From: FCB group bacterium
GTDB taxonomy: Bacteria; Fidelibacterota; Marinisomatia; Marinisomatales; JAADGP01
Length of the DNA: 61,028 bases
Direction of reading: 5' to 3'
NCBI GenBank assembly: GCA_013152315.1
Contig: JAADGP010000043.1
Span: 1 to 61,028 of the forward strand
Both the position numbers and the translations under genes were made by a program. This document shows, one piece after another, positions 2,973 to 55,453 of the stretch. A model generated the notes under the pieces. It was not told the DNA's origin. It saw nothing but the letters and a program-made list of their open reading frames with translations, and searched no databases. The first letter of the stretch is position 1. Every line of letters starts with the position of its first letter.

Positions 2973-3971
2973 ATGATTAAATCCGACCAGGGCATTAATG
3001 ACATGAATTACCGGCAGGAAAACAATTCCGTAAATCCGGGCGATCGGAAAAGACCCCTCGCGCGGGGAATCCGTAACGTCTTCCTGTCGTCCGTAATATT
3101 ATTGCTGGTTGTTCCCGTCCAGTCCCAAACCCGGGTTAAAATCACGGACCTGGTTGATCGAATGGACGAAAACGGCATTAACCGAAAGTACCTGCCCGAC
3201 GCAAAGGAACCCTATTCGGGAGTCGTATATAATCTTTACGACAACGACCAGAAAGAATTCGAAGGGGTCTTAACCGGGGGAATCCAGGATAGTTTATGGA
3301 CCTGGTGGTACCCCAATGGTCAGAAAAAATGGCAATTAACTTTTAAGAATTATCAAAAACACGGTCCCTGGCGCGAGTGGTACGAGTCCGGACAAATCAA
3401 ACAGGAGGGAACGTATCGGAATAATCAGAAAGTGGGGCTATGGACCCTGTGGTATGAAAACGGGCGTAAATCTTCCGAAGAACGGTACGAGGAAGATCGC
3501 CTGAACGGGAAAATCGTATTATGGTATTCCAACGGACAAAAGGAAGGCGAAGCAAAGTATATTTACGGCTACAAGGAAGGCCCTGATTTGGGGTGGTATC
3601 CTAGCGGAGAAAAGAAATGGGAGTTCTTTTGGAAAAACGGCAAGGAACACGGCCTTCAGGTTGAGTGGTATGCGAACGGAAATAAAAAGTATGAACACAA
3701 TTTCCGTAATGGTCAATGGACCGGCAAATTATATGAATGGTATGAAAACGGGCAACCACGGGTCGAGGGCGGCTTCAAAGTAGGTGTCCAGGATGGGCCC
3801 TGGACCTGGTGGTGGAACAACGGGGAAATTGCCTTAAAAGGGAATTACTCGTTCGGCTTCCCGACCGGCGCCTGGACCTGGATTTCCAAGCAGGGAAAAG
3901 AAACCGTAAAAGCGAACCCCGAGGCGGAGTGGGTCATAAGCAAAATTGAATTTTTTGAAAAAAAACGGTGA
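2973..3971 (+). CDS. MORN-variant repeat protein (YwqK-like), N-terminally anchored
   Basis: 332 aa with many tandem ~23-aa repeats (WYPNGQKK, WYESGQIK, WYENGRKS, WYSNGQKE, WYANGNKK, WYENGQPR). N-terminal hydrophobic segment VFLSSVILLLVVPV. Confidence 0.8.
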   Translation: MIKSDQGINDMNYRQENNSVNPGDRKRPLARGIRNVFLSSVILLLVVPVQSQTRVKITDLVDRMDENGINRKYLPDAKEPYSGVVYNLYDNDQKEFEGVLTGGIQDSLWTWWYPNGQKKWQLTFKNYQKHGPWREWYESGQIKQEGTYRNNQKVGLWTLWYENGRKSSEERYEEDRLNGKIVLWYSNGQKEGEAKYIYGYKEGPDLGWYPSGEKKWEFFWKNGKEHGLQVEWYANGNKKYEHNFRNGQWTGKLYEWYENGQPRVEGGFKVGVQDGPWTWWWNNGEIALKGNYSFGFPTGAWTWISKQGKETVKANPEAEWVISKIEFFEKKR

Positions 3972-7913: not shown

Positions 7914-8399
7914 ATGCAAACACCATCAATTTCCGAATGTATTCCGATTCTTCAAACAGCCATCGGGCCGATGATTTTTATTTCGGGCGTTGGCTTGCTG
8001 CTTTTGTCAATGACCAACCGCTTGGGCCGGGCCATCGATCGTACCCGGAGTCTGAGTCGTCATATTCCGGAGGCCACCGGTAATAAACGGGCCCGGATTC
8101 AGGTACAACTCCAAATCCTGTGGAAACGGGCCTGCATGATCCGACTGGCAATTACCTTGGCGTCAATCAGTCTACTGGCGGCAGCCGTGTTAATTATCAG
8201 CCTGTTTATTACCGCGCTGTGTCAGATTGAATCGTCCTGGATCATTGTCGCTTTGTTTATTATCAGTATGCTCTGTTTAATCGGTTCGCTGGTGGTCTTT
8301 ATCCATGATATTTACCGGTCGTTAGCCGCCCTGAAACTGGGTCTTCTCGCCGCCGAGGAAGAATACAACATGGCGGCCATCGTGACGGAGTCCGACTAA
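7914..8399 (+). CDS. DUF2721-like membrane protein
   Basis: 161 aa. An N-terminal TM (GPMIFISGVGLLLLSMTNRLGRAIDRTRSL) and two more TM helices around a charged loop are typical of DUF2721. The family call is from memory. Confidence 0.55.
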   Translation: MQTPSISECIPILQTAIGPMIFISGVGLLLLSMTNRLGRAIDRTRSLSRHIPEATGNKRARIQVQLQILWKRACMIRLAITLASISLLAAAVLIISLFITALCQIESSWIIVALFIISMLCLIGSLVVFIHDIYRSLAALKLGLLAAEEEYNMAAIVTESD

Positions 8400-8409
8400 C
8401 GGTTTCATT

Positions 8410-8607
8410 GTACGACAACCGTCCTGCCGCTGCGGGACAAGTTCCTCGGTTGTCGAGTATGGACTATTAGTTAAACCCTCAACAAGGAACGTCAGGTATA
8501 AATGTTCGACGCACTCTTTTCCTGGTTGTCGAGCGTAATCTATCAATGGGACCCGTCAACCAAGCTTGCCTGGCGTAACGCAGTGTAGCCAGGGATGCTT
8601 GACGTAC
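8410..8607. repeat. REP/BIME-like cluster (family 1), inverted relative to the RAYT locus
   Basis: A-long(+) 8410-8456 (GTACGACAACCGTCCTGCCGCTGCGGGACAAGTTCCTCGGTTGTCGAG), degenerate A ~8504-8533, B-long(-) 8553-8607 ending ...GCTTGACGTAC. Confidence 0.9.
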
Positions 8608-8677
8608 TACATACAGGATTTACCGGTTGAATCGGGGGGAGTGGAACGGTAATTTCGCAGACGTTATCGCGTTGAAA

Positions 8678-10252
8678 ATGAAGCAAACATCAATCATCCT
8701 TATTTCGATAATCTTTTCGTGCGTTCTATTCTCCCAGGAAGCCAGGAGTGTCCAGGGGGCTTTTGGGGCCGTTACCATCGACGGCAAAATTTGGAACCAA
8801 ATTGCCCTGCGACCGGTCATTCCGATCTGGAAATTCGGGGTCGCGCTCGATTTGGTCCTGTACATCGACCAGGACGGGAATATCCACAAGGATGAATGGG
8901 ATTTCTCCAGTCCGTCGGCGATTAAAAACACATTGATCGATAAAATCTACTACGTGCGTTTCGGTTATAGAACGGATCCGGTTTATTTTAAAATAGGCGC
9001 TCTTGATCGCGTGTCCTTGGGGTATGGGATTCTGGTGAACGGTTATGCCAATACGGTTCTTTATCCTCAGGTGCGAAAAGTCGGTTTGGAATGGAGTGTG
9101 AAAAACAAGCTGCTGTCCGTGCAGGGATTCGTAAATGATTTTAAAGAAAACCTGGGTCTGGTTGGTTTGCGTGTCGAACGGCCGTTGATGCCCGGAACAC
9201 CGGTTGGTGTGTCGGTGATTCTGGACAGAAATCAATACCTGGGATTAAAGGATCAGGATGATGACGGCCGGCCGGATCTGGTTGATGATTTTCCCAATAA
9301 CAAATTTTACTGGGTCGATTCCGATGGCGATGGCATCGCGGATAACGATCCCCTGGAATGGGATATTGACGGAGATGGGATTACCGATACCTTGGATAGC
9401 CGGATTCCGGGTTGGACGCTGGACACGACAATCGTGTTGGACCGGGATATTCTGCGCCGGGACGAACCATTGAATATAAAGGAAGACCGCGACCCGGTCG
9501 GCGCCATAGCCCTGGATATCGGTTTCCCGATCGTTGTCGAATCCAACATGTCGGTGTCCATATACGCCCAGGCGGCCAAGATGATCGGGAAAACATGGGA
9601 CCCGGAGAAAAAGAAAAAAGTTTCCACCGGTTCGGGAATTATTCCCGTCGGCATCGCGACCCGTTTCGGTCCGGCCCGGTTTAACCTGGAATACCGGATG
9701 ATCCCCCGGGGCAGATTTGAATTCGGTTACTGGAACCAGTCGTACCAGATTGAACGGGCCTCCATTTCAACCAGTGGGGAAGGAACCGGTCAGGCGGGCA
9801 ACGTAACCGCGATCATTACCAAAGAAAGCAGTTTGGGCCGGTATGGCCCCCTTAAAGGCTTTTACGCGCTTTTAAGTCTGGACTTGGGGAAACTGATTAT
9901 GGCGGAAGCGGCCTACCAGAATTTATCCGGAGAAATTTGGGATGAGGATACCCAGGAATTTTCGTATTCACCCAACCAGAATTTTTACGCCAATCTGAAA
10001 TTGCAGAAAAGTATCAGTCGTATTAAAACAGCCAAATTATTTTACCAGCAAAGAAACGTTCCCAACCTGTTTTCATTTGAATTTACCGAAAGCACGATTA
10101 TGGGATATCGCCTGGGACTCGCATTGGGGTCCGGAATGGTGCTTACTTATACCTATCAGCGGACATTTCGCGATTTAAACGGCGACGGCGATGTGAAGGA
10201 TGAAAATGAAATGGTCAATCTCACCGCAATTGAAACCAGTTTCACCTTTTAA
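8678..10252 (+). CDS. outer-membrane beta-barrel-like protein with thrombospondin-type-3-like acidic Ca-binding repeats
   Basis: Signal peptide MKQTSIILISIIFSCVLFSQ at the internal ATG 8678. Central DQDDDGRPDLVDDF...DSDGDGIADNDPLEWDIDGDGITDTLD repeats. Alternating beta-strand pattern, with the C-terminus ending ...AIETSFTF. Confidence 0.65.
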   Translation: MKQTSIILISIIFSCVLFSQEARSVQGAFGAVTIDGKIWNQIALRPVIPIWKFGVALDLVLYIDQDGNIHKDEWDFSSPSAIKNTLIDKIYYVRFGYRTDPVYFKIGALDRVSLGYGILVNGYANTVLYPQVRKVGLEWSVKNKLLSVQGFVNDFKENLGLVGLRVERPLMPGTPVGVSVILDRNQYLGLKDQDDDGRPDLVDDFPNNKFYWVDSDGDGIADNDPLEWDIDGDGITDTLDSRIPGWTLDTTIVLDRDILRRDEPLNIKEDRDPVGAIALDIGFPIVVESNMSVSIYAQAAKMIGKTWDPEKKKKVSTGSGIIPVGIATRFGPARFNLEYRMIPRGRFEFGYWNQSYQIERASISTSGEGTGQAGNVTAIITKESSLGRYGPLKGFYALLSLDLGKLIMAEAAYQNLSGEIWDEDTQEFSYSPNQNFYANLKLQKSISRIKTAKLFYQQRNVPNLFSFEFTESTIMGYRLGLALGSGMVLTYTYQRTFRDLNGDGDVKDENEMVNLTAIETSFTF

Positions 10253-15874: not shown

Positions 15875-16666
15875 ATGCTGATTGCCAAGATCATTCCCCC
15901 GGACTCGTCACTATATAAACGCCTTTCCGGTCTCGCGAAGTCCCTGGATGGCTTCATGGAGTACAGACCGTTGGATTGGTTCTGGATATGGACCATGTTC
16001 GTCGCCGGAATGGGCACGCACGCGGGGTACGTTGAGCGGCATTTTTTCTGGGAATTTACCCCCTGGCATATTGGAATTTTGTCGCTGGCGGTAGTTACGT
16101 ATATTGTGGCCGTTTTCGTTCTGAAACGAGGGATATTGAAGGCGACACCGACCGTGAAGGAAATCGGGGTTTATTCGCTTTTCGGTCTGGCGCTTTTTCT
16201 ATTGGGATGGGGTAGTAATCCCCTGGTGGGGATAAAATACAGTATTCCCTATCTCCTGTTTTTAATAGCGGTTATGTTTGTTTTTGCCATTCCTCTGAAT
16301 AAAGATGAAAAAAGCGGTGAGGTGACAATTGCTTCCCAATCCAAAAAACGAGTGTACGTGTTTGTCGCGTTATTATTAACCGTCGCGGCCACGGTGATTG
16401 GTTATTATCTTGACGATCCGGTTGCAAGTACGGCTTCTGTAGTCTATTTGCCGTTCCTGGTTGTCGCGTCCGTCACATCGCATGTTCGTCATGTTCAGCG
16501 GTCCAGGATATTTTCGATATTTATCATGGCCATGTTTGTTTCCGCCCGGGAAGCCTGGTTTTTAATACCGTTGGTAATTTTATTTTATGCCTTACGGTAC
16601 TATTATTATTTCCGGCACCAGATAGTCTATCCTACATTCAGCGTCCATATGGATGAGGAACAATAG
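15875..16666 (+). CDS. hypothetical polytopic membrane protein
   Basis: 263 aa with ~7 hydrophobic helices and no recognisable motifs. It lacks the Asp-rich motifs of UbiA prenyltransferases. Confidence 0.55.
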   Translation: MLIAKIIPPDSSLYKRLSGLAKSLDGFMEYRPLDWFWIWTMFVAGMGTHAGYVERHFFWEFTPWHIGILSLAVVTYIVAVFVLKRGILKATPTVKEIGVYSLFGLALFLLGWGSNPLVGIKYSIPYLLFLIAVMFVFAIPLNKDEKSGEVTIASQSKKRVYVFVALLLTVAATVIGYYLDDPVASTASVVYLPFLVVASVTSHVRHVQRSRIFSIFIMAMFVSAREAWFLIPLVILFYALRYYYYFRHQIVYPTFSVHMDEEQ

Positions 16667-18179: not shown

Positions 18180-21002
18180 ATGGAAATATCAGCAATCTTA
18201 AAACAATTAAATTTATCCGAATTCGTTGCTTTCGATTTTGAAACCACCGGACTGGATCCGGTTGAAGACCGGATCATAGAAATTGCGGCCGTGCGGTTTG
18301 TTGACGGACAAATAACCGATCGGTTTGTTACCCTGGTTAATCCCGGGAAACAGATTTCGGAGGTAATAACCGATATTACCGGCATTTCAAATTCCATGGT
18401 GGAAGATGCCCCTCCCGAAAAAGAGGTTATTGCGGATTTCTTTGCCTTCCTGGGTAACGCTCCCTTGGTGGCCCATCATATTTCCTTTGACATCAGCTTC
18501 CTGAAAGCCTTGCATGACCGCCACGGGCGACCATATGTCGAGCACAAGCTTTACGACACACTGCAACTGGCGCGCTCCGTATTGTTCGATCGATCGGCCT
18601 ATAATTTGGGATCAATCGCCGATGAAATGGGACTGTCATCGAGCGGATCGCACCGCGCTGAAAAAGATGCGGAAAATTGCGGGCTGATTTTTCTCCGCCT
18701 GGTGGAAGAAACCGCCTCCCTCCCTTTGGAGGTCGTATCGAAAATCCTGGCCTTAATCAAATCGTCGACCATTCCGAATAAGGCGTTATTTGTGGATTTG
18801 GCGAATGTCTTAACCGCGCGTGGGGACTTGAAAAAGGGTTTGACCGAATCAAAGATCAGACGCCCGGTATACAAAAATATTTTTGAATATTCAGGTACCC
18901 GGGATATCCGGTCGATTTCAGCGGAGGATGTATTTGCGAAAGAGGGCCTGTTAAGTGGTGTACTGGAAAATTACGAAGAACGTGTCAATCAAATCCGGTA
19001 TGCCGAATTCGTGGAAAAAATCATTACCAATGATGCCAACATCGGAGTGGTCGAGGCGGGAACCGGTTTGGGAAAATCATTGGCGTATTTATTCCCGGCC
19101 TTGAAATGTTCCTTAATATCCGATTTCGAGGGCCCCACAATAATCTCCTGTCACACAAAACACCTGCAGGATCAATTATTCCATAAGGATTTACCACTCT
19201 TGGCCAAGGCGCTGGATGTTTCCTTACTGGCGGTGATCCTGAAAGGGCGGAATAATTATATTTGTTTGACGCGTTTGAATTGGGTGATTGCCGACGCCGC
19301 AAAAATCCTGAATGACAGTGAGGTGGAAAGCCTGATCCCGATTCTGATCTGGGTTCACCATACCCAAACGGGGGATATGTCGGAATGTACCGGCTTTTGG
19401 AGCAACCGTCCCACCAGGGTGGTAAGTTTAATCCAGAGTGATGCGGGGTTTTGTACCACCAACCTCTGCAATAAATACCATGGTTGTTTCTTCGGGAAGG
19501 TTCGCCGGGCGGTTTATGACGCTGATTTTATTATTGTTAATCATGCCCTCCTGTTATCCGAAATAGGAGCGCCGGGAATATTACCCCCCTATAATACGAT
19601 TATCATCGACGAAGCGCATAATTTAATCGGAACCGCCTACCGGCAATTAACCATCCATCTGGACCAGACATCGGTCATGGTACAATTGCAAACCCTCGAC
19701 CCGAAATACCAGGGGAATGTGCGCTGGAGCAGTGTCCTGAAATTGCTGTCGGGACATTATCCCGAATTTGAGAAATTGCGGAAAACGCTCGAACAGAATG
19801 TAAATGATGCCAAACAAGCGGCTAAAACCCTCTTTGAAATGTTGAACCTCAATTTCGCAAACCGGTACAATATTAACGATTTTTACCCCAGGAAGTACAT
19901 AATTGAAAACCTTGCGGAAGAGTTTAATGAAGTTTATGGTGAATTGGTCACACTGGGGAAAGCGCTTCAGGACCTTTTAGAAACGATAAAACAATTAGCC
20001 AGGGAATTGTTGGCGAAAGATGAAAGTAAGCTGGATTATCCCGCTTTACACCAGGTTTTTGAACAACAACAGGAAATATTGATTGAATTGACAACACGAT
20101 TGGCCACCCTTACGTCACAACAAGATACCGATTGGGTTTACTGGCAGGAGGGACAGTTTGTGCGTCGCGGTTATTCTTCCGGCCAGTTGAACATTTCGCT
20201 CCATTGCGCGCCGGTGGACGTGGCGAAAATATTGGCCGATAAATTCTTCGAAGCGGTGGAACATTGTGTGCTTACGTCAGCGACCCTTCAGGTCGATGAC
20301 AGTTTTGATTATTTCCTGAACCGTTCCGGACTGAACCAGATGGATCCCCAACAAGTAATTACCCGGACATACCCCAGCCCCTTTTATTATGAAGACCAGG
20401 TTACGTATCTTCAGTACGGCGGTTCCATAAGCATTACCAATAACCCATCGGCGTTGGCGGAGGCGATATATAATTGCCATAAGAAGTATAATAAAAGGAT
20501 AATGGCCCTGTTTACTTCATATAATACTTTAAATGGTGTGTACCGGGCGTTGCGCGCCAAATTCGAGGGTCGTGACCTCCCGATTTACGCTCAGGTGCAT
20601 GGTACTTCGCGCTACGCGATGATCCGCGGAATGCATCAATCATCCAATGGTATATTGTTGGGTACCAATGCTTTTTGGGAGGGGGTGGACTTACCCGGTG
20701 ACCTGTTAGAGGTATTGATCATTACCAAACTGCCTTTCGATGTACCCTCGGAACCGGTAATCAGAGCCTATTCCGCTAAAATCCATGAGCAGGGAGGCAA
20801 TTCGTTTGACGAATTTTCCGTGCCGGAATGCGTTATCAAGTTTCGACAGGGGTTTGGTCGTTTAATTCGCACAACCTCCGATGAAGGCGTTTTCATTGTG
20901 CTGGATGACCGGGTAGTGACGAAATCCTACGGGAAACATTTCAGCGCCGCAATCCCGGTCCGCATGCAGGTATTTACCCATCTCGAAGATTTGAAGTATT
21001 AA
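18180..21002 (+). CDS. dinG: DinG-family helicase fused to N-terminal DnaQ-like 3'-5' exonuclease
   Basis: 940 aa. Exo motifs DFETTGL, HHISFDISFL and HRAEKDAENC. Helicase Walker A AGTGLGKS and DEAH box IIIDEAHNL. A Cys cluster lies between them. Confidence 0.9.
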   Translation: MEISAILKQLNLSEFVAFDFETTGLDPVEDRIIEIAAVRFVDGQITDRFVTLVNPGKQISEVITDITGISNSMVEDAPPEKEVIADFFAFLGNAPLVAHHISFDISFLKALHDRHGRPYVEHKLYDTLQLARSVLFDRSAYNLGSIADEMGLSSSGSHRAEKDAENCGLIFLRLVEETASLPLEVVSKILALIKSSTIPNKALFVDLANVLTARGDLKKGLTESKIRRPVYKNIFEYSGTRDIRSISAEDVFAKEGLLSGVLENYEERVNQIRYAEFVEKIITNDANIGVVEAGTGLGKSLAYLFPALKCSLISDFEGPTIISCHTKHLQDQLFHKDLPLLAKALDVSLLAVILKGRNNYICLTRLNWVIADAAKILNDSEVESLIPILIWVHHTQTGDMSECTGFWSNRPTRVVSLIQSDAGFCTTNLCNKYHGCFFGKVRRAVYDADFIIVNHALLLSEIGAPGILPPYNTIIIDEAHNLIGTAYRQLTIHLDQTSVMVQLQTLDPKYQGNVRWSSVLKLLSGHYPEFEKLRKTLEQNVNDAKQAAKTLFEMLNLNFANRYNINDFYPRKYIIENLAEEFNEVYGELVTLGKALQDLLETIKQLARELLAKDESKLDYPALHQVFEQQQEILIELTTRLATLTSQQDTDWVYWQEGQFVRRGYSSGQLNISLHCAPVDVAKILADKFFEAVEHCVLTSATLQVDDSFDYFLNRSGLNQMDPQQVITRTYPSPFYYEDQVTYLQYGGSISITNNPSALAEAIYNCHKKYNKRIMALFTSYNTLNGVYRALRAKFEGRDLPIYAQVHGTSRYAMIRGMHQSSNGILLGTNAFWEGVDLPGDLLEVLIITKLPFDVPSEPVIRAYSAKIHEQGGNSFDEFSVPECVIKFRQGFGRLIRTTSDEGVFIVLDDRVVTKSYGKHFSAAIPVRMQVFTHLEDLKY

Positions 21003-21009
21003 TGTTAAA

Positions 21010-21196
21010 GTACGACAACCATCCCGCCGTTGCGGTACAGGTTCCCTGGTTGTCGAGTAGGATGCATCAACAGAAATCGTCAAGCAGGGATACAAAAGTA
21101 CGACAACCGTCCTCGGTTGTCGAGCGTGATCTCTCAGCAAAAACCGTCAAGCAGGCTTGCCTGGCGTAACGCAGTGTAGACAGGGATGCTTGACGG
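21010..21196. repeat. REP/BIME-like cluster (family 1), inverted relative to the RAYT locus
   Basis: A-long(+) 21010-21056, B half 21077-21094, A-short(+) 21098-21124 (GTACGACAACCGTCCTCGGTTGTCGAG), B-long(-) 21144-21196. Confidence 0.9.
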
Positions 21197-21256
21197 CATT
21201 TATTTTACCGGACGCTTCTTATTGTATTGAGACAGACAATCGCCCTAAATTACTTC

Positions 21257-22783
21257 ATGGCGATTGTTTCGGTTACACCCGATAGATATTCTTACCTGGA
21301 TTTTAAATCGTTTTTCACGACGCCTGTTAAAGTCCGCCTTTCCCGAGCAGCACAAAAAAATATCATTCAATCGCATGCACGATTGAAAGTATTGTTGAAT
21401 AAAGGCACCCGGATTTACGGTGTTAATACGGGGTTCGGGAATCTCAGTAAGATTTCGATTAGTAGGGAAGATCAGATGCAATTGCAATTGAATCTGGTCC
21501 GGAGCCACGCCGCCGGTGTGGGGAAACCGTTGGACAAGGGTTTGACGCGCCTGGTAATGTTTTTGAAACTACTGACGTTTGCCAAGGGAATAAGTGGTGT
21601 TCGATTGGAAGTGGCAAGACAAATCATTCGTTTTTTAAACCACGATATATTGCCCGTGATCCCCCGTAAAGGGTCCGTGGGCGCCAGTGGCGATTTGGCC
21701 CCCCTGGCGCATGTTGCCCTGTCACTAATCGGAGAAGGGGAAGCCCTTTTCCGGGATCGCGTCGTGCCCACTTTGTTGGCCTTGAAAGAAGTCGGAATAG
21801 AGCCCCTGTCTTTACAACCGAAAGAAGGTTTGAGCCTGATTAACGGGACCCAGGTTTCCACCGCGCTGGCTGTTAAAGCTCTTTTATCAGCAGATATGTT
21901 ATTAAAAACAGCGGATCTTGCGGGCGCGTTATCGGTCGAGGCGACTCTTTCGTCCCGTGACGTGTTTATAGCAGCCATCCATCAATTGAAATGTCATCCC
22001 GGCCAACAACAGTCAGCCCGAAATATCTGGAAAATCCTGGAGGGAAGTGAAATCGTATTGTCTCACAAGGATTGCAATCGGGTTCAGGATCCCTACAGCA
22101 TCCGGTGTATCCCCCATGTCCACGGCAGTAGCCGCGATGTATTCGCGGCGGCCCGGGTCATGATTGATCATGAAATTAACAGTGTCAGTGACAACCCTTT
22201 GATAATGAACACCGGTGAAGTGTATAGTTCCGGACATTTTCACGCTGAACCGGTTGCGCAGGCGTTGGACATGTTGGCGATTGCCATGAGTGAAATCGGC
22301 GCCATTTCCGAACGGCGGATTCACTTATTCATGAAGGGGATTGATAATAAGATTCCTCCCTTTCTCGCTCACAATCCGGGACTGGAATCGGGATACATGG
22401 TTGCCCAGGTAACCGCCGCGGCTTTGGCTTCCGAGAATAAGTCTTTAGCGCATCCCGCCAGTGTCGATTCCATTCCCACTTCGGCCGGACATGAGGATTT
22501 TGTCAGCATGGCGCCCTGGGCGGGACGCAAAGTCCTGCGGATCATTGAAAACGTGACGTTTATCCTTGCTATTGAAATCCTGATTGCCGTTAATTCGATT
22601 ATGGCCTATCATAAACGGTTAAAGCCCGGACATGGGACCCGGCTGATTATCGATAGTTTGAAGAAAGATGTTCATTTTACCCAGGGTGACCGCCCCTTAA
22701 GTAAAGATATCGGAATTGTATCCGAAATGATTAGAAATGGAAAAATAATTAATACTGTTCAAAAATATTTGGAATTGGAGTAA
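21257..22783 (+). CDS. hutH: histidine ammonia-lyase (MIO-dependent aromatic amino acid lyase family)
   Basis: MIO-forming GSVGASGDLAPLAH, TGFGNLS, and LVRSHAAGVG (the Ser-His pair is typical of HAL). ATG 21257 is preferred over TTG 21227. Confidence 0.88.
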   Translation: MAIVSVTPDRYSYLDFKSFFTTPVKVRLSRAAQKNIIQSHARLKVLLNKGTRIYGVNTGFGNLSKISISREDQMQLQLNLVRSHAAGVGKPLDKGLTRLVMFLKLLTFAKGISGVRLEVARQIIRFLNHDILPVIPRKGSVGASGDLAPLAHVALSLIGEGEALFRDRVVPTLLALKEVGIEPLSLQPKEGLSLINGTQVSTALAVKALLSADMLLKTADLAGALSVEATLSSRDVFIAAIHQLKCHPGQQQSARNIWKILEGSEIVLSHKDCNRVQDPYSIRCIPHVHGSSRDVFAAARVMIDHEINSVSDNPLIMNTGEVYSSGHFHAEPVAQALDMLAIAMSEIGAISERRIHLFMKGIDNKIPPFLAHNPGLESGYMVAQVTAAALASENKSLAHPASVDSIPTSAGHEDFVSMAPWAGRKVLRIIENVTFILAIEILIAVNSIMAYHKRLKPGHGTRLIIDSLKKDVHFTQGDRPLSKDIGIVSEMIRNGKIINTVQKYLELE

Positions 22784-52227: not shown

Positions 52228-52603
52228 GTACGTCAACCATCCCTGTCTCCACTGCGTTATGCCAGACAAGCTTGCTTGACGATTCCCATTGAGGATTTAT
52301 ATTCGACAACCGAGGACGGAGTACGTCAACCATCCTTGGTTGACGGTTTCTGTTGATACATCATACTCGACAACCACGGAAGGAGTACTTCAAGTATCCC
52401 TGTCTAAACAGTGCTACGCCAGGCAAGCTTGGTTTACGGTTCTTGCTGAGGGTTCTTACTTATCATCCATGCTCGACAACCGAGGACGGTTGTCGCACTT
52501 GTACGTCAAGCATCTTTGCTTGACGAATACCGGAGTTTAATTTTATTAGCATCAAGTCGACAACCAAGGAACTTGTCCCGCAACGGCGGGATGGTTGTCG
52601 TAC
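52228..52603. repeat. REP/BIME-like array (family 1), upstream of RAYT
   Basis: Units: B-long 52228-52281, B-short 52321-52346, degenerate B-long 52385-52439, A-short(-) 52472-52498, B-short 52501-52525, A-long(-) 52556-52603. Degenerate A half-units lie at ~52301 and ~52367. Confidence 0.9.
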
Positions 52604-52653
52604 TCTTGGTTTGAAAGTTTTGAAAAAATTATAGTTGTGCGAAATTTACTATT

Positions 52654-53292
52654 ATGAAACAGGTCTATTATCGACATCTTCCTCACATTCAACCCCTTGG
52701 CGCAACAATATTTGTAACCTTTCGATTAGCTGGAAGTTTACCCCAGGAAGTAATAGACCAGTTAAAGGAAGAAAAAAACACATTAATAAAAATTATACGG
52801 AATTGCCCCGATAAGGCGAGGAGTATTGCTAAAAAAGAGCTGAAACAACTCTATTATCGATATGATGAATTTTTGCATAATTCGTCGGTCGGGCCTCATT
52901 ATTTACGAATTGGTAAGATTGCTGAATTAGTCTGTGATTCAATGAAATATTGGGATCAAAAGAAATACGATTTATTGGCATATTGTGTGATGTCGAACCA
53001 TGTGCATAAAGTAATTGTTCCTTTGTCGATAAAAGAAGATGAATATTATTCGTTAGCGGATATTATGCACAGTATCAAAAGTTATTCAGCAAGTGAAGCG
53101 AATAAGATATTAGATCGGAAAGGTCAGTTCTGGACACATGAAAGTTTCGATCATTATTGTCGTAGTGAGGGAGAAGAACTTGAAGTAATAAAATATGTTC
53201 TCAATAATCCTGTAAAAGCCGGTCTGGTTAAAAATGCAAAACACTGGAAATGGAGTTACGTGAAAGAAGAATTGAAGGACTATATTGGATAA
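52654..53292 (+). CDS. REP-associated tyrosine transposase (RAYT; IS200-like Y1 HUH enzyme)
   Basis: 212 aa with YRHLPHI, the HUH motif in CVMSNHVHKVIV and a Tyr motif IKYVLNNPVKAGLV. Flanked on both sides by palindromic repeat arrays. Confidence 0.88.
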   Translation: MKQVYYRHLPHIQPLGATIFVTFRLAGSLPQEVIDQLKEEKNTLIKIIRNCPDKARSIAKKELKQLYYRYDEFLHNSSVGPHYLRIGKIAELVCDSMKYWDQKKYDLLAYCVMSNHVHKVIVPLSIKEDEYYSLADIMHSIKSYSASEANKILDRKGQFWTHESFDHYCRSEGEELEVIKYVLNNPVKAGLVKNAKHWKWSYVKEELKDYIG

Positions 53293-53293
53293 T

Positions 53294-53591
53294 GTACGTC
53301 AAGCATCCTTGCTTGACGGTTCCTGTTATTGAATCATGCCTGACAACCGAGGACGCTTCCCATTGATGGGGCACTCGACAACCGGGGACGGTTGTCGTAC
53401 ATGTACGTCAAGCATCCCTGGTTACACTGCGTTACGCCAGGCAAGCCTGCTTGACGATTTCTGTTGAGGGATCATGCTCGACAACCAAGGATGGTTGTCG
53501 TACTTTTGTATCCCTGCTTGACGGTTCCTGCTGAGGGGTTACACCCGACAACCGAGGAACTTGTCCCGCAGCGGCGGGACGGTTGTCGTAC
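53294..53591. repeat. REP/BIME-like array (family 1), downstream of RAYT
   Basis: Units: B-short 53294-53319, A-short(-) 53374-53400, B-long 53403-53456, A-short(-) 53477-53503, B half 53508-53524, A-long(-) 53544-53591. Confidence 0.9.
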
Positions 53592-53646
53592 ATGGTTCTG
53601 TCAGCTGTGATTTTTAATAAAGGTCAGAAGAAGCTTGATTTGAATA

Positions 53647-53715: not shown

Positions 53716-54321
53716 ATGAGTACCAAAGAAAAACGTAATTCTCCCAAGTATAATCAGGTCCTGAGAACAGCCGAAGAATTGTTTATGCGGTACGGCATCC
53801 GACGGGTTACGGTTGAGGAAATATGCAGAACCGCGAACGTCAGCAAAATGACCTTCTACAAATTTTTCAAAAACAAAGGCGATTTGGCTCATAAAATCAT
53901 TATTAGTCTTTATGATGAAGGGCAAGAGACATTTGACCGTATTATGCAACAGGACATTCCTTTTGCGGAAAAGATGAACCAGGTGATTCAATTTAAGCTT
54001 GAATACGGGAAACGTTTCAGTAAGGAGTTTTTCCAGGACATTTTCGGGTTTTCCCCGGAAATCAGGGCGATTGTTATGGAGCGCTCCCAACAGGGCATTC
54101 AACAGATTCTGGAAATATTTAAGCAGGCCCAGCAGCGGGGGGAGATCAGGAAAGATCTTAACCTGAAATTCGTGGCTTATATGCTGGATAATCTCCTGGA
54201 ATTACGAGAGGACCCCCGTATGCTGGCGCTTTTCCCGGATACCTATGAATTGGTTCGCGAATGGATGAATTATTTCTTTTATGGCATCATGGGTAAGAGC
54301 GATCAGGATAATGCGGGTTAA
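53716..54321 (+). CDS. TetR/AcrR-family transcriptional regulator
   Basis: 201 aa with N-terminal HTH VTVEEICRTANVSKMTFYKFFKNKGDL. Confidence 0.9.
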   Translation: MSTKEKRNSPKYNQVLRTAEELFMRYGIRRVTVEEICRTANVSKMTFYKFFKNKGDLAHKIIISLYDEGQETFDRIMQQDIPFAEKMNQVIQFKLEYGKRFSKEFFQDIFGFSPEIRAIVMERSQQGIQQILEIFKQAQQRGEIRKDLNLKFVAYMLDNLLELREDPRMLALFPDTYELVREWMNYFFYGIMGKSDQDNAG

Positions 54322-55453
54322 ATTATTGATCATTGTGATTATGGCAGCGACTGTTTCGCCGCAAATAATGGCGGAGACTTTACCATTCGACATCCAGGGG
54401 GAGCTTTCCGGTTGGAATTATTTTGTGGGCGATGGATTTGATTCCACAGAAACTCAACTAGGTCTTCGCTACATACCGAACGTCAGCGCGGAACTGTTTA
54501 CAATTGGTGAGGGGACAGTCGATATTGAACTTTCCGGTAATCTTTATTATTCAAAATGGATCGCCGGGAAACAAGGCGAAACATACGACTTGAAACCGTA
54601 TCGCTTGTGGATTCGCTACACCGACGACCGTTTTGAGGCGCGGCTGGGGCTGCAGAAGATTAATTTCGGTCCGGCGAAAGTTTTACGGACATTGATGTGG
54701 TTTGACCGCCTGGACCCCCGCGACCCGCTGCAGTTAACGGAAGGGGTCTATGGGATCAGAATGCGCTATGATTTCCCGAATAATGCGAATATCTGGGGGT
54801 GGGGATTGTTTGGGAATCGCGACCCGAAGGGATGGGAGTTTATCGGTACGGAAAAAGGAACCCCCGAATATGGCGGCCGGGTACAATATCCATTGGGGAA
54901 CGGTGAGGTTGCGTTTACCACGCATTACCGGGTGCTTAGTCCGACAGTTGCCCGGAGTGGAGATGTCGTGGTTGGTAAAAATACCCGCGAACACCGGGTC
55001 GCGCTTGACGGAATCTGGGATCTTGGCGTGGAGGTATGGTTCGAGTCGGCTTTGGTCAACAGCCCGTTTGTGAATAGCCCTGTGGACTGGCAATCGTTTC
55101 TTACCCTGGGAATGGACTATACGTTTCCGGTTGGGAATGGATTGCTGGTATTGGGAGAACATTTATCAGGAGGTATGGGCAGCGCGCCGTTCAACCGGGA
55201 TGAAAAGGTTGATTTAACCGGGTTCCTGATTTCTTACCCCCTGGGACTTACCGATCAAATCGCTTTCTTTCAGTTTTACAATTGGTATTTGAAAGCGCCG
55301 TATTACTATATGAGTTGGCAGCGAACATATGATTTCTGGAGATTTTACGTTGGTGGATATTGGAGTCCCAGAACCAACACGGTTAGTATCAATGAATCGC
55401 TGGCAACCCCGGGCAGAAGCGGTTTGCAGATTATCATTATTTTCAATCATTAA
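54311..55453 (+). CDS. hypothetical outer-membrane beta-barrel-like protein
   Basis: Signal peptide MRVKLLIIVIMAATVSPQIMA at ATG 54311, which overlaps the TetR stop. Alternating amphipathic strands rich in Y/W/G. No family recognised. Confidence 0.6.
   Translation: MRVKLLIIVIMAATVSPQIMAETLPFDIQGELSGWNYFVGDGFDSTETQLGLRYIPNVSAELFTIGEGTVDIELSGNLYYSKWIAGKQGETYDLKPYRLWIRYTDDRFEARLGLQKINFGPAKVLRTLMWFDRLDPRDPLQLTEGVYGIRMRYDFPNNANIWGWGLFGNRDPKGWEFIGTEKGTPEYGGRVQYPLGNGEVAFTTHYRVLSPTVARSGDVVVGKNTREHRVALDGIWDLGVEVWFESALVNSPFVNSPVDWQSFLTLGMDYTFPVGNGLLVLGEHLSGGMGSAPFNRDEKVDLTGFLISYPLGLTDQIAFFQFYNWYLKAPYYYMSWQRTYDFWRFYVGGYWSPRTNTVSINESLATPGRSGLQIIIIFNH

Follow-up and report, generated by a model that had tools for sequence, protein, structure and literature searches.

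A RAYT gene between arrays of two GTAC-headed palindromic units in an uncultured Marinimicrobia bacterium

A stretch of 61,028 nt (positions 1 to 61,028 of contig JAADGP010000043.1) from an FCB group bacterium (GenBank assembly GCA_013152315.1), hereafter called the window, carries a gene for a REP-associated tyrosine transposase (RAYT), where REP denotes a repetitive extragenic palindromic sequence. The gene spans 52654..53292 on the + strand and encodes a 212-aa protein of the TnpAREP type (an HUH-Tyr, or Y1, enzyme) as judged by Pfam, NCBIfam, profile, and Foldseek searches. It sits between two dense arrays of short hairpin units, called A and B, which extend over 52228..52603 on the left and 53294..53591 on the right. 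An initial annotation, made from the sequence by itself, had described this locus as a RAYT gene with HUH and Tyr motifs embedded in arrays that resemble bacterial interspersed mosaic elements (BIMEs), and had pointed to satellite clusters of the same units at 8.4 kb and 21 kb.

The RAYT gene and its protein

The open reading frame (ORF) and both motifs are present as described, the latter being MSNHVHKV and YVLNNPVKAGLV. The HUH motif corresponds to N115-H116-V117-H118, and the predicted catalytic tyrosine is Y181, which lies in the sequence YVLNNP (Y181-V-L-N-N185-P186). A database search returned 1606 homologs, several of which are labeled RayT or transposase by their source. The catalytic residues hold up on proper alignment, where H116, H118, Y181, N185, and P186 are invariant among 35 homologs. 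The residues W160-T161 are the counterpart of W94-Q95 in the Escherichia coli enzyme.

Among models of protein families, Pfam Y1_Tnp matches the protein with E = 6e-7, and the best NCBIfam model is REP_Tyr_transpos (NF047646), which scores 73.7 bits over residues 89-201 only. The NCBIfam IS200 model reaches 18 bits versus its cut-off of 55. When the 35-homolog alignment was used as a profile to search the PDB, the sole match was E. coli TnpAREP (4ER8, E = 2e-7). The profile was required for this result, as a search with the single sequence placed 4ER8 at E = 0.25 only. Residues W94, E100, H101, and R104 of 4ER8 align to W160, D166, H167, and R170, respectively, and the His pair of the HUH motif aligns to HMH of 4ER8. 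An AlphaFold model of the protein (pLDDT 90.6) gave a Foldseek ranking headed by 4er8_A (E = 2e-7), followed by the ISDra2, IS200, and IS608 TnpA proteins at 5e-4 or weaker. Relative to the 165-aa E. coli enzyme, the model has an extra two-helix insertion of ~50 aa after strand 1. Alignment and structural modeling show that the protein has the predicted TnpAREP fold together with its catalytic residues, and they place it nearer to TnpAREP than to the IS200/IS605 transposases in both sequence and modeled fold.

No second RAYT copy was found in the window by tblastn, and no tnpB gene was found near the RAYT gene in either the window or the corresponding locus of a sister organism. Comparison with the sister ortholog shows that the gene has been under strong purifying selection (dN/dS = 0.07, a value to be read qualitatively only because dS is saturated at ~1.4). 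As the annotation had noticed by eye, the gene is AT-richer than its neighbors. Its GC content is 35.1% versus 47.1% for the window, and GC content at third codon positions (GC3) is 30.5% versus 52-59% in seven other genes, four of which are the immediate neighbors. The sister ortholog has a GC3 of 44% and resides on a contig with 44% overall GC. The low GC3 of the window gene may stem from weak expression, from a past transfer, or from selection to avoid structure.

The RAYT start codon is preceded by an AT-rich leader of 50 nt (52604..52653, + strand), which begins past the final A(-) unit of the left array and probably holds the promoter and ribosome-binding site. By eye, this leader partly recurs at the sister locus, L001, as GTTTTGAA...CGAAATTTA...ATG. 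Here and below, loci found in other genomes and metagenomes are designated by such numbers.

Repeat units, satellite clusters, and the sister organism

Both flanks are almost wholly composed of units in the order B(+), linker, A(-), and this order is repeated 3-4 times per flank. On the + strand, unit B reads GTACGTCAAGCA-loop-TGCTTGACG. Unit A lies on the - strand as GTACGACAACC..GGTTGTCG, which when read on the + strand is CGACAACC-loop-GGTTGTCGTAC. Stem positions 2 and 6 distinguish the two units, and at each of them the opposite arm carries a compensating change. A variant called B' (GTACGTCAACC...GGTTGACG, 52321-52345) carries one of the two A/B changes, which is also compensated. The presence of compensated changes in A, B, and B' therefore argues that pairing itself is conserved. 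Folded as single-stranded DNA (ssDNA), a short unit pairs into a stem of 9 bp that closes a 4-nt loop and leaves the 5' GTA unpaired (approximately -10 to -11 kcal/mol, with z of approximately -6 to -7). Fold prediction also indicates that the C of the GTAC head can pair with a 3' G, and that the long forms of A and B carry an extra nested hairpin inside the loop. The 5' head is GTAC in 9/9 well-formed units counted near the gene, and there is one GTGC variant.

The left array, defined from the sequence, repeat families D1-D5, a unit list, and folds, begins with B-long(+) at 52228-52281. This unit is followed by a truncated A(-) at 52304-52319, the CC/GG stem variant B'(+), a second truncated A(-) at 52368-52383, and a degenerate B-long(+) at 52385-52438. 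The part nearest the gene consists of A-short(-) at 52474-52498, whose head is GTGC, B-short(+) at 52501-52525, and A-long(-) at 52558-52603. The right array, defined from the sequence, repeats, folds, and alignment, has its first base 1 nt past the RAYT stop codon. It comprises B-short(+) at 53294-53318, a degenerate A(-) at 53340-53355, A-short(-) at 53376-53400, B-long(+) at 53403-53456, A-short(-) at 53479-53503 with TTTT after it, the 3' half of a B(+) after that TTTT at 53508-53523, and A-long(-) at 53546-53591. The sequence, repeat families, and unit list all uphold the annotation's statement that the flanks are made almost entirely of A and B units, although several of these units are truncated or degenerate, as noted for each.

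Throughout the unit list A and B face each other. In tail-to-tail pairs the linker measures ~22 nt (up to 35 nt) and begins with G/A-TT-Y-C-T-G-Y-T-G-A-G-G-G (GRTTYCTGYTGAGGG...), and head-to-head junctions measure 2 nt, as in CGTAC-AT-GTACG at 53396-53407. The alternating B(+)/A(-), head-to-head layout was thus described correctly by the annotation, but the example it had placed at 53391-53413 starts at 53390. A size rule was also seen in the window arrays and at 21010-21196, where B-long pairs with A-short and B-short pairs with A-long. Due to this complementarity of long and short forms, the doublets hold a length of ~93-103 nt. Some sister copies break the rule, for example at L149.

The units are far more abundant than expected. 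The head-plus-stem pattern GTACGWCAAS occurs 21 times in the window with at most one mismatch, versus 6.9 expected, and 0/100 shuffles reach 21. The stem 8-mers CGACAACC, GGTTGTCG, CGTCAAGC, and GCTTGACG occur in 10, 11, 5, and 8 copies in the window, respectively, versus 0.4-1.4 expected. Some matches were set aside as chance. These are the one-mismatch GTACGWCAAS matches at 44.8-45.0 kb, judged by eye to be coding, those at 2003, 3236, and 18300, and lone 8-mer matches at 16459, 23341, 4917, 55003, and 59285. A search of Rfam at gathering thresholds gave zero matches across the window. A CRISPR-like array was also considered and rejected, as the units are palindromic, their orientation alternates, and the "spacers" are conserved.

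Both satellite clusters proved to be real, intergenic, and opposite in orientation to the arrays at the gene. The first (8410..8607) is bordered by a DUF2721 gene (7914-8399, +) on one side and a 541-aa ORF (8627-10252, +) on the other, and contains A-long(+) at 8410-8455, a degenerate A(+) that ends at 8531, and B-long(-) at 8554-8607. The second (21010..21196) lies between genes for a DinG-like exonuclease-helicase (18180-21002, +) and an aromatic amino-acid lyase (21227-22783, +). It contains A-long(+) at 21010-21055, half of a B(-) at 21078-21093 with AAAA after it, A-short(+) at 21098-21122, and B-long(-) at 21145-21195. Each satellite is located directly past a stop codon and between co-directional neighbors. 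For the 541-aa ORF and a 390-aa ORF at 54281-55453, both of which adjoin REP clusters, Pfam yielded no match at E <= 1e-5.

The annotation had proposed a composite unit of ~75-130 nt, which is too small. The module that recurs is instead a four-unit composite of ~190-220 nt with the order B-long, linker, A-short, junction, B-short, linker, A-long. It is colinear at four sites, namely both satellites, the stretch of the left array next to the gene, and the portion of the right array far from it, with 70-84% identity among them. The 21-kb satellite and 53403-53595 are 83.9% identical in a gap-free alignment, and the two have in common the half-B and TTTT junction. Because this feature is idiosyncratic, one of these composites was copied from the other or both derive from a common source. 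The 8.4-kb satellite is 80.9% identical to 53403-53595, and the remaining pairs of composites are 70-81% identical. Divergence of 16-30% among copies means that the composites are old. Stem arms have been kept among the copies, and linkers have drifted.

The alanyl-tRNA synthetase of the host is 65-67% identical to those of named Marinimicrobia (Neomarinimicrobiota, Fidelibacterota) and 91% identical to that of the sister organism. On the basis of this sequence, the uncultured host belongs to Marinimicrobia (Fidelibacterota). In a single scan of GTDB representative genomes no close relative was found, the best match being 57% identical, and the species is therefore absent from that collection.

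At the sister locus L001, the RAYT protein (P0002) is 81% identical to that of the window, and its gene lies beside matching genes for an MscS-type channel, a GNAT acetyltransferase, and a GH114 protein, such that the left-hand neighbors are common to both loci. The flanks of L001 are likewise made of A/B units with B(+)/A(-) polarity on both sides. The arrays there are longer, differ in unit number from those of the window, and mostly use a different linker of 34 nt. This tail-to-tail linker (L001 9348-9381 and repeats; L085 4709-4742) includes a near-perfect 14-nt palindrome, TTCAGTGTACTGAA, that is absent from the window linkers. By analogy with the IHF site in the linkers of E. coli BIME-1, the palindrome could be a putative protein-binding site.

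Differences between the two organisms are also evident at other clusters. The sister site orthologous to the 8.4-kb satellite (L203 2588-2963) has only a B-long remnant, beside the 541-aa ORF, in common with the window, and the site orthologous to the 21-kb satellite holds a different, degenerate unit. Such differing content at orthologous clusters indicates turnover after the species split. Gene order breaks exactly at the 8.4-kb cluster, where the upstream gene is DUF2721 in the window and groES-groEL in sister L203. The 541-aa ORF is kept in the sister as a 543-aa gene. On the 3' side of the sister RAYT gene, a TetR gene (L001 10990-11205) has been cut to residues 94-153 when compared with its window counterpart (53716-54321). 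The fragment starts where the right REP array ends, and the genes beyond it differ from those in the window. From this comparison, the TetR remnant looks like the product of a deletion or rearrangement with its breakpoint at the array.

A scan for the pattern GTACGACAACC-N(4-34)-GGTTGTCG found A/B units, mostly as doublets, on at least seven further contigs of the sister's metagenome (sample Ga0256830). Among the matches listed, 6/7 of those on sister contigs look intergenic by eye. The 120 matches listed for the metagenome scan are mostly chance occurrences in high-GC coding DNA or belong to another REP family from a high-GC soil lineage. That lineage (L098, L113, L140, L165, L170, L180-L182, L192, L198; GC ~0.64) has many copies of GTACGACAACC-TCTCA-GGTTGTCG, often beside GTAGGACAAGC-TCTCA-GCTTGTCC. 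These repeats match unit A in head and stem and differ from it in loop and partner. Another locus, L124 (7080-7290 of JACKQG010003529.1, GC 0.41), has a tandem array with an 81-nt period in which unit A (GTACGACAACCATCTTGGTTGTCGAG) occurs together with a B-like unit whose last copy ends GACCTAC (head GTAG). This contig probably comes from another relative of the window's organism.

A probable REPtron and its mechanism

We consider it very probable that the locus is a REPtron, meaning a single-copy, vertically inherited gene for a RAYT (an HUH/Tyr ssDNA endonuclease-ligase of the TnpAREP type) with its cognate dimorphic REP hairpins on both sides in BIME arrangement. The annotation's core reading of a RAYT gene in BIME-like arrays of two palindromic units has therefore stood up, on the strength of the catalytic residues, the matches to 4ER8, the alternating units, and the recurrence of these units elsewhere in the window and on sister contigs. 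Vertical inheritance is favored because the gene is single-copy in the window, is under selective constraint (the low dN/dS reported above), shares its left neighbors with the ortholog, and has no detected tnpB partner.

Several observations weigh against this interpretation. The A and B units do not have the canonical GT[AG]G head and instead begin with GTAC. The protein falls below the curated equivalog cut-off of NF047646 (73.7 versus 80 bits), a score that is consistent with a divergent subclass. The GC content of the gene is low. The divergence among composite copies is large enough that recent mobility is not apparent. Finally, mutations of GTAG, including a change to GTAC, abolish activity in two of the three systems studied, and thus the established mechanism is not simply transferable to this locus.

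We regard as unlikely the proposal that the repeats are strict REPINs, in which a doublet folds into one long hairpin that serves as the mobile unit. B(+) and A(-) are inverted relative to each other and, as read from the sequence, are able to pair at 21/25 positions, and the doublet of ~100 nt is a repeated module. However, both the minimum-energy and the centroid DNA folds of the four doublets tested consist of two separate 9-bp hairpins. The two compensated stem differences between A and B disfavor pairing of one with the other, and the unit that is colinear between sites comprises four hairpins rather than two.

Even less likely, in our estimation, is that the enzyme is a domesticated relic whose action on the repeats has ceased, so that the A/B hairpins are kept by host use and their proximity to the gene is historical. 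Candidate host uses include transcript 3'-end stabilizers, terminators, or protein-binding sites, and E. coli REPs affect mRNA stability and bind IHF, gyrase, and Pol I (as cited in PMC6006769). This proposal agrees with the age of the copies, which are 16-30% diverged, with the location of all clusters just past stop codons and between co-directional genes, and with the retention of stems while linkers drift. It is at odds with the strong purifying selection on the gene and with catalytic residues that are all intact. The two species also have unequal numbers of units in the arrays beside the gene, and the contents of orthologous intergenic clusters have turned over since their divergence. 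Moreover, across phyla each RAYT gene adjoins its own repeat sequence, which the literature reads as RAYT-REP co-evolution (PMC6006769). Host use may nevertheless hold in part alongside the REPtron interpretation, and by analogy the REPs may serve the host as 3'-end structure elements in RNA or DNA.

It is highly improbable that the locus is an autonomous insertion sequence (IS) of the IS200/IS605 type, whose gene and hairpins would move together with the flanks as left and right ends, for the title of Pfam Y1_Tnp ("Transposase IS200 like"), the structural kinship with IS200/IS605 transposases, the equal polarity of hairpins on both sides as at IS608-type ends, and a gene GC of 35% versus 47% that could suggest foreign origin are countered by a single-copy gene in the window, an 81%-identical ortholog in the same place beside MscS, GNAT, and GH114 genes, no tnpB nearby, flanks of multi-unit alternating arrays rather than single subterminal hairpins, repeats at other sites without the gene, an NCBIfam IS200 score far under its cut-off (18 versus 55 bits), and a Tyr motif of the class 2 form Y...NP rather than Y...Q (PMC6006769).

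If the locus is a REPtron, its mode of action can be proposed by analogy with the enzymes of E. coli, Stenotrophomonas, and Marinomonas (PMC3333891, PMC3479197, PMC8266576). The RAYT protein would bind A/B hairpins extruded in ssDNA, for example on the lagging-strand template. The 5' tetranucleotide of each unit would serve as a guide sequence, with A3 and C4 presented for pairing. Cleavage at a nearby dinucleotide would proceed through Y181 and create a covalent 5'-phosphotyrosine link. Rejoining of strands would then copy, delete, and reshuffle REP/BIME modules and generate composites.

Two precedents shape a prediction for the cleavage site. The 4ER8 co-crystal leaves just two bases of the GTAG head, A3 and G4, available for pairing with the CT of the cleavage site, and Q95 and R21 wedge between G4 and G5 (PMC3479197). 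When the head of a Marinomonas REP was changed to GTAC, cleavage moved to GT and GA (Corneloup et al. 2021, PMC8266576); the E. coli and Stenotrophomonas enzymes are intolerant of a GTAC head (PMC8266576). Because only head bases 3 and 4 can take part in such pairing in TnpAREP, and because engineered GTAC redirected the Marinomonas enzyme, the cleavage dinucleotide at the present locus is predicted to be GT (or GA) and not CT. The dinucleotide GT lies directly 3' of B in most window copies (TGCTTGACG-GT), and in head-to-head pairs it is located at -6/-5 in the neighboring head. Across the window units, the spacing of GT or GA relative to the hairpins is too irregular for a cleavage site to be called.

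The GTAC head and known RAYT/REP systems

Eighty related loci from other phyla were compared. Most of their RAYT genes are located beside hairpin repeats of their own with heads of GTAN or GTGN, and two repeat types in alternating orientation are frequent (e.g., L081, L075, L017, and L004). The annotation had singled out the GTAC head as a departure from the GTAG of enterobacterial REPs. Although this head is indeed not of the canonical GT[AG]G form, it is found at other loci too. In L040, L058, L048, and L051 the dominant or co-dominant head is GTAC, in L036, L057, and L073 GTAC is a minor head, and it is also present in the high-GC soil lineage. Heads of GTAG, GTAA, and GTAT occur at related RAYT loci as well. 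Neither Nunvar 2010 (PMC2817692) nor Di Nocera 2013 mentions a GTAC head.

The residue at the position of Q95 is threonine (T161) in the window protein, and the family consensus is glutamine. Residue and head were compared at the 63 related loci with usable data by Fisher tests that ignore kinship. With kinship so ignored, heads end in G at 30/42 loci with Gln versus 8/21 loci with another residue (p = 0.015), and GTAC is dominant or co-dominant at 2/42 Gln loci versus 5/21 others (p = 0.036). A tentative proposal, which we hold to be rather doubtful, is that this clade represents a natural "re-programmed guide" RAYT, in which a change of head from GTAG to GTAC accompanied a change from Gln to Thr at the residue packed against head base 4 in the E. 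coli co-crystal, with cleavage at GT instead of CT. If true, the association of residue with head would be a readable specificity rule for RAYTs.

Two of the related loci exhibit rearranged genes. A contig from a metagenome-assembled genome (L077 144-1783) carries its RAYT gene twice in tandem (242-940 and 1033-1731), and the tblastn statistics of the two copies are identical. One and the same REP doublet precedes each copy and the period is 791 nt, which corresponds to a tandem duplication of gene plus doublet. At L029 (3001-3922, Bacteroidota), the RAYT match is split and lengthened, and the span of the gene contains double-foot GTAG hairpins at 3138-3166 and 3697-3733. These hairpins match the "REP inserted in tnpAREP" feature known for subclass 2.4.

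The locus and its ~80 relatives document REPtron architecture (a single-copy gene, dimorphic REPs, and BIME arrays) in uncultured lineages that include Marinimicrobia, Chloroflexota, Poribacteria, and Bacteroidota, and this breadth of lineages supports the view that the RAYT/REP system is old and widespread. To our knowledge, experimental study of RAYT/REP systems has been confined to Proteobacteria. A literature search found RAYTs and Marinimicrobia together only as an incidental co-mention. So far, the guide-sequence model has been demonstrated for a single enzyme only, by means of engineered substrates, and the locus, as a natural GTAC-headed system with a sister species, is suited to probing it. 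For comparisons of metagenome-assembled genomes, the findings also single out REP clusters as points at which rearrangement and gene truncation occur. In practical terms, the value is modest.

The closest parallel in layout is the REPtron of E. coli K-12 (rayT = yafM, TnpAREP, 4ER8; BIME-2 of Y and Z2). Both systems have a single-copy HUH/Tyr gene and two related REP subtypes in alternating orientation, with further copies in intergenic regions, which in the window means two other gaps. In both, one subtype is always on the gene strand and the other always on the opposite strand, on both flanks. This can be read directly from the E. coli K-12 locus, which has Y(+) Z2(-) upstream of rayT and Z2(-) Y(+) Z2(-) Y(+) downstream. 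The annotation had considered the same polarity of both flanks to be out of the ordinary, but E. coli rayT and the relatives L001, L075, and L081 all exhibit it. E. coli yafM is delimited by Y and Z2 units with BIME-2 on both sides, and a direct association with BIMEs has been reported for one third of RAYTs (Nunvar et al. 2010, PMC2817692). More than one REP subfamily is present in nearly half of REPtrons (Quentin et al. 2018, PMC6006769). The features flagged as unusual are ordinary for the RAYT family, and a modest lead on guide specificity is what remains.

In the enzyme, the HUH motif, the Y...NP motif, and the positions of W94, H101, and R104 are conserved with E. coli TnpAREP. Differences from this enzyme include a structure-aligned identity of only ~17%, a length of 212 aa versus 165 aa, and the Thr at the Q95 position. 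Its REPs also differ, with GTAC versus GTAG heads, short perfect 9-bp stems versus long bulged stems, and long forms that carry a nested second hairpin in the loop. Head-to-head junctions measure 2 nt at the present locus versus 17 nt in E. coli, and tail-to-tail linkers are ~22 nt versus 12-13 nt.

Judged by motifs only, the protein best fits TnpAY1 subclass 2.7 of Quentin et al. 2018, with subclass 2.4 (Bertels group 4) as the alternative. The fit to subclass 2.7 is suggested because the protein has NHVH, YVLNNP, a length of 212 aa, and Asp at the E100 position; the motifs described for this subclass are [ND]HVH, WQ, and YI[LR][NQ]NP in proteins of ~213 aa (Quentin et al. 2018, PMC6006769). 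Members of these subclasses have NHVH, Y[IV]xNNP, ~213 aa, and Asp at the E100 position, are associated with long canonical REPs, and are spread through Cyanobacteria and scattered other phyla. Traits of subclass 2.4, namely double-foot REPs and REP insertions inside the gene, are seen in the relatives L021, L054, and L029. Both subclasses have been described with GT[AG]G heads and WQ, whereas the present clade has GTAC and WT.

The group 3 REPIN-RAYT systems of Pseudomonas and Stenotrophomonas and the Marinomonas REPtron Mb are similar in having short perfect palindromes, a 5' tetranucleotide, a doublet module, and vertical inheritance. They differ in that their RAYTs belong to another subclass (DH[LF]H, ~150 aa), their natural heads are GTAG, and their doublets consist of identical REPs that are able to form one long hairpin. 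With the IS200/IS605 family (IS608 and ISDra2 TnpA), the likeness extends to the HUH/Tyr fold and, if activity is judged by analogy, to ssDNA hairpin substrates and a 5' guide tetranucleotide that would set the cleavage site. That family otherwise comprises multi-copy ISs with single subterminal hairpins, dimeric enzymes, often a tnpB gene, and a Y...Q motif in IS200 in place of the Y...NP signature of class 2 (PMC6006769), none of which is seen at this locus.

As in BIMEs, regular REPs of alternating orientation are joined by recurring linkers on both flanks of the gene and in both satellites, and two REP subtypes keep a fixed mutual orientation, as do Y and Z. The locus is thus another example of the known REPtron layout and not a new kind of element.

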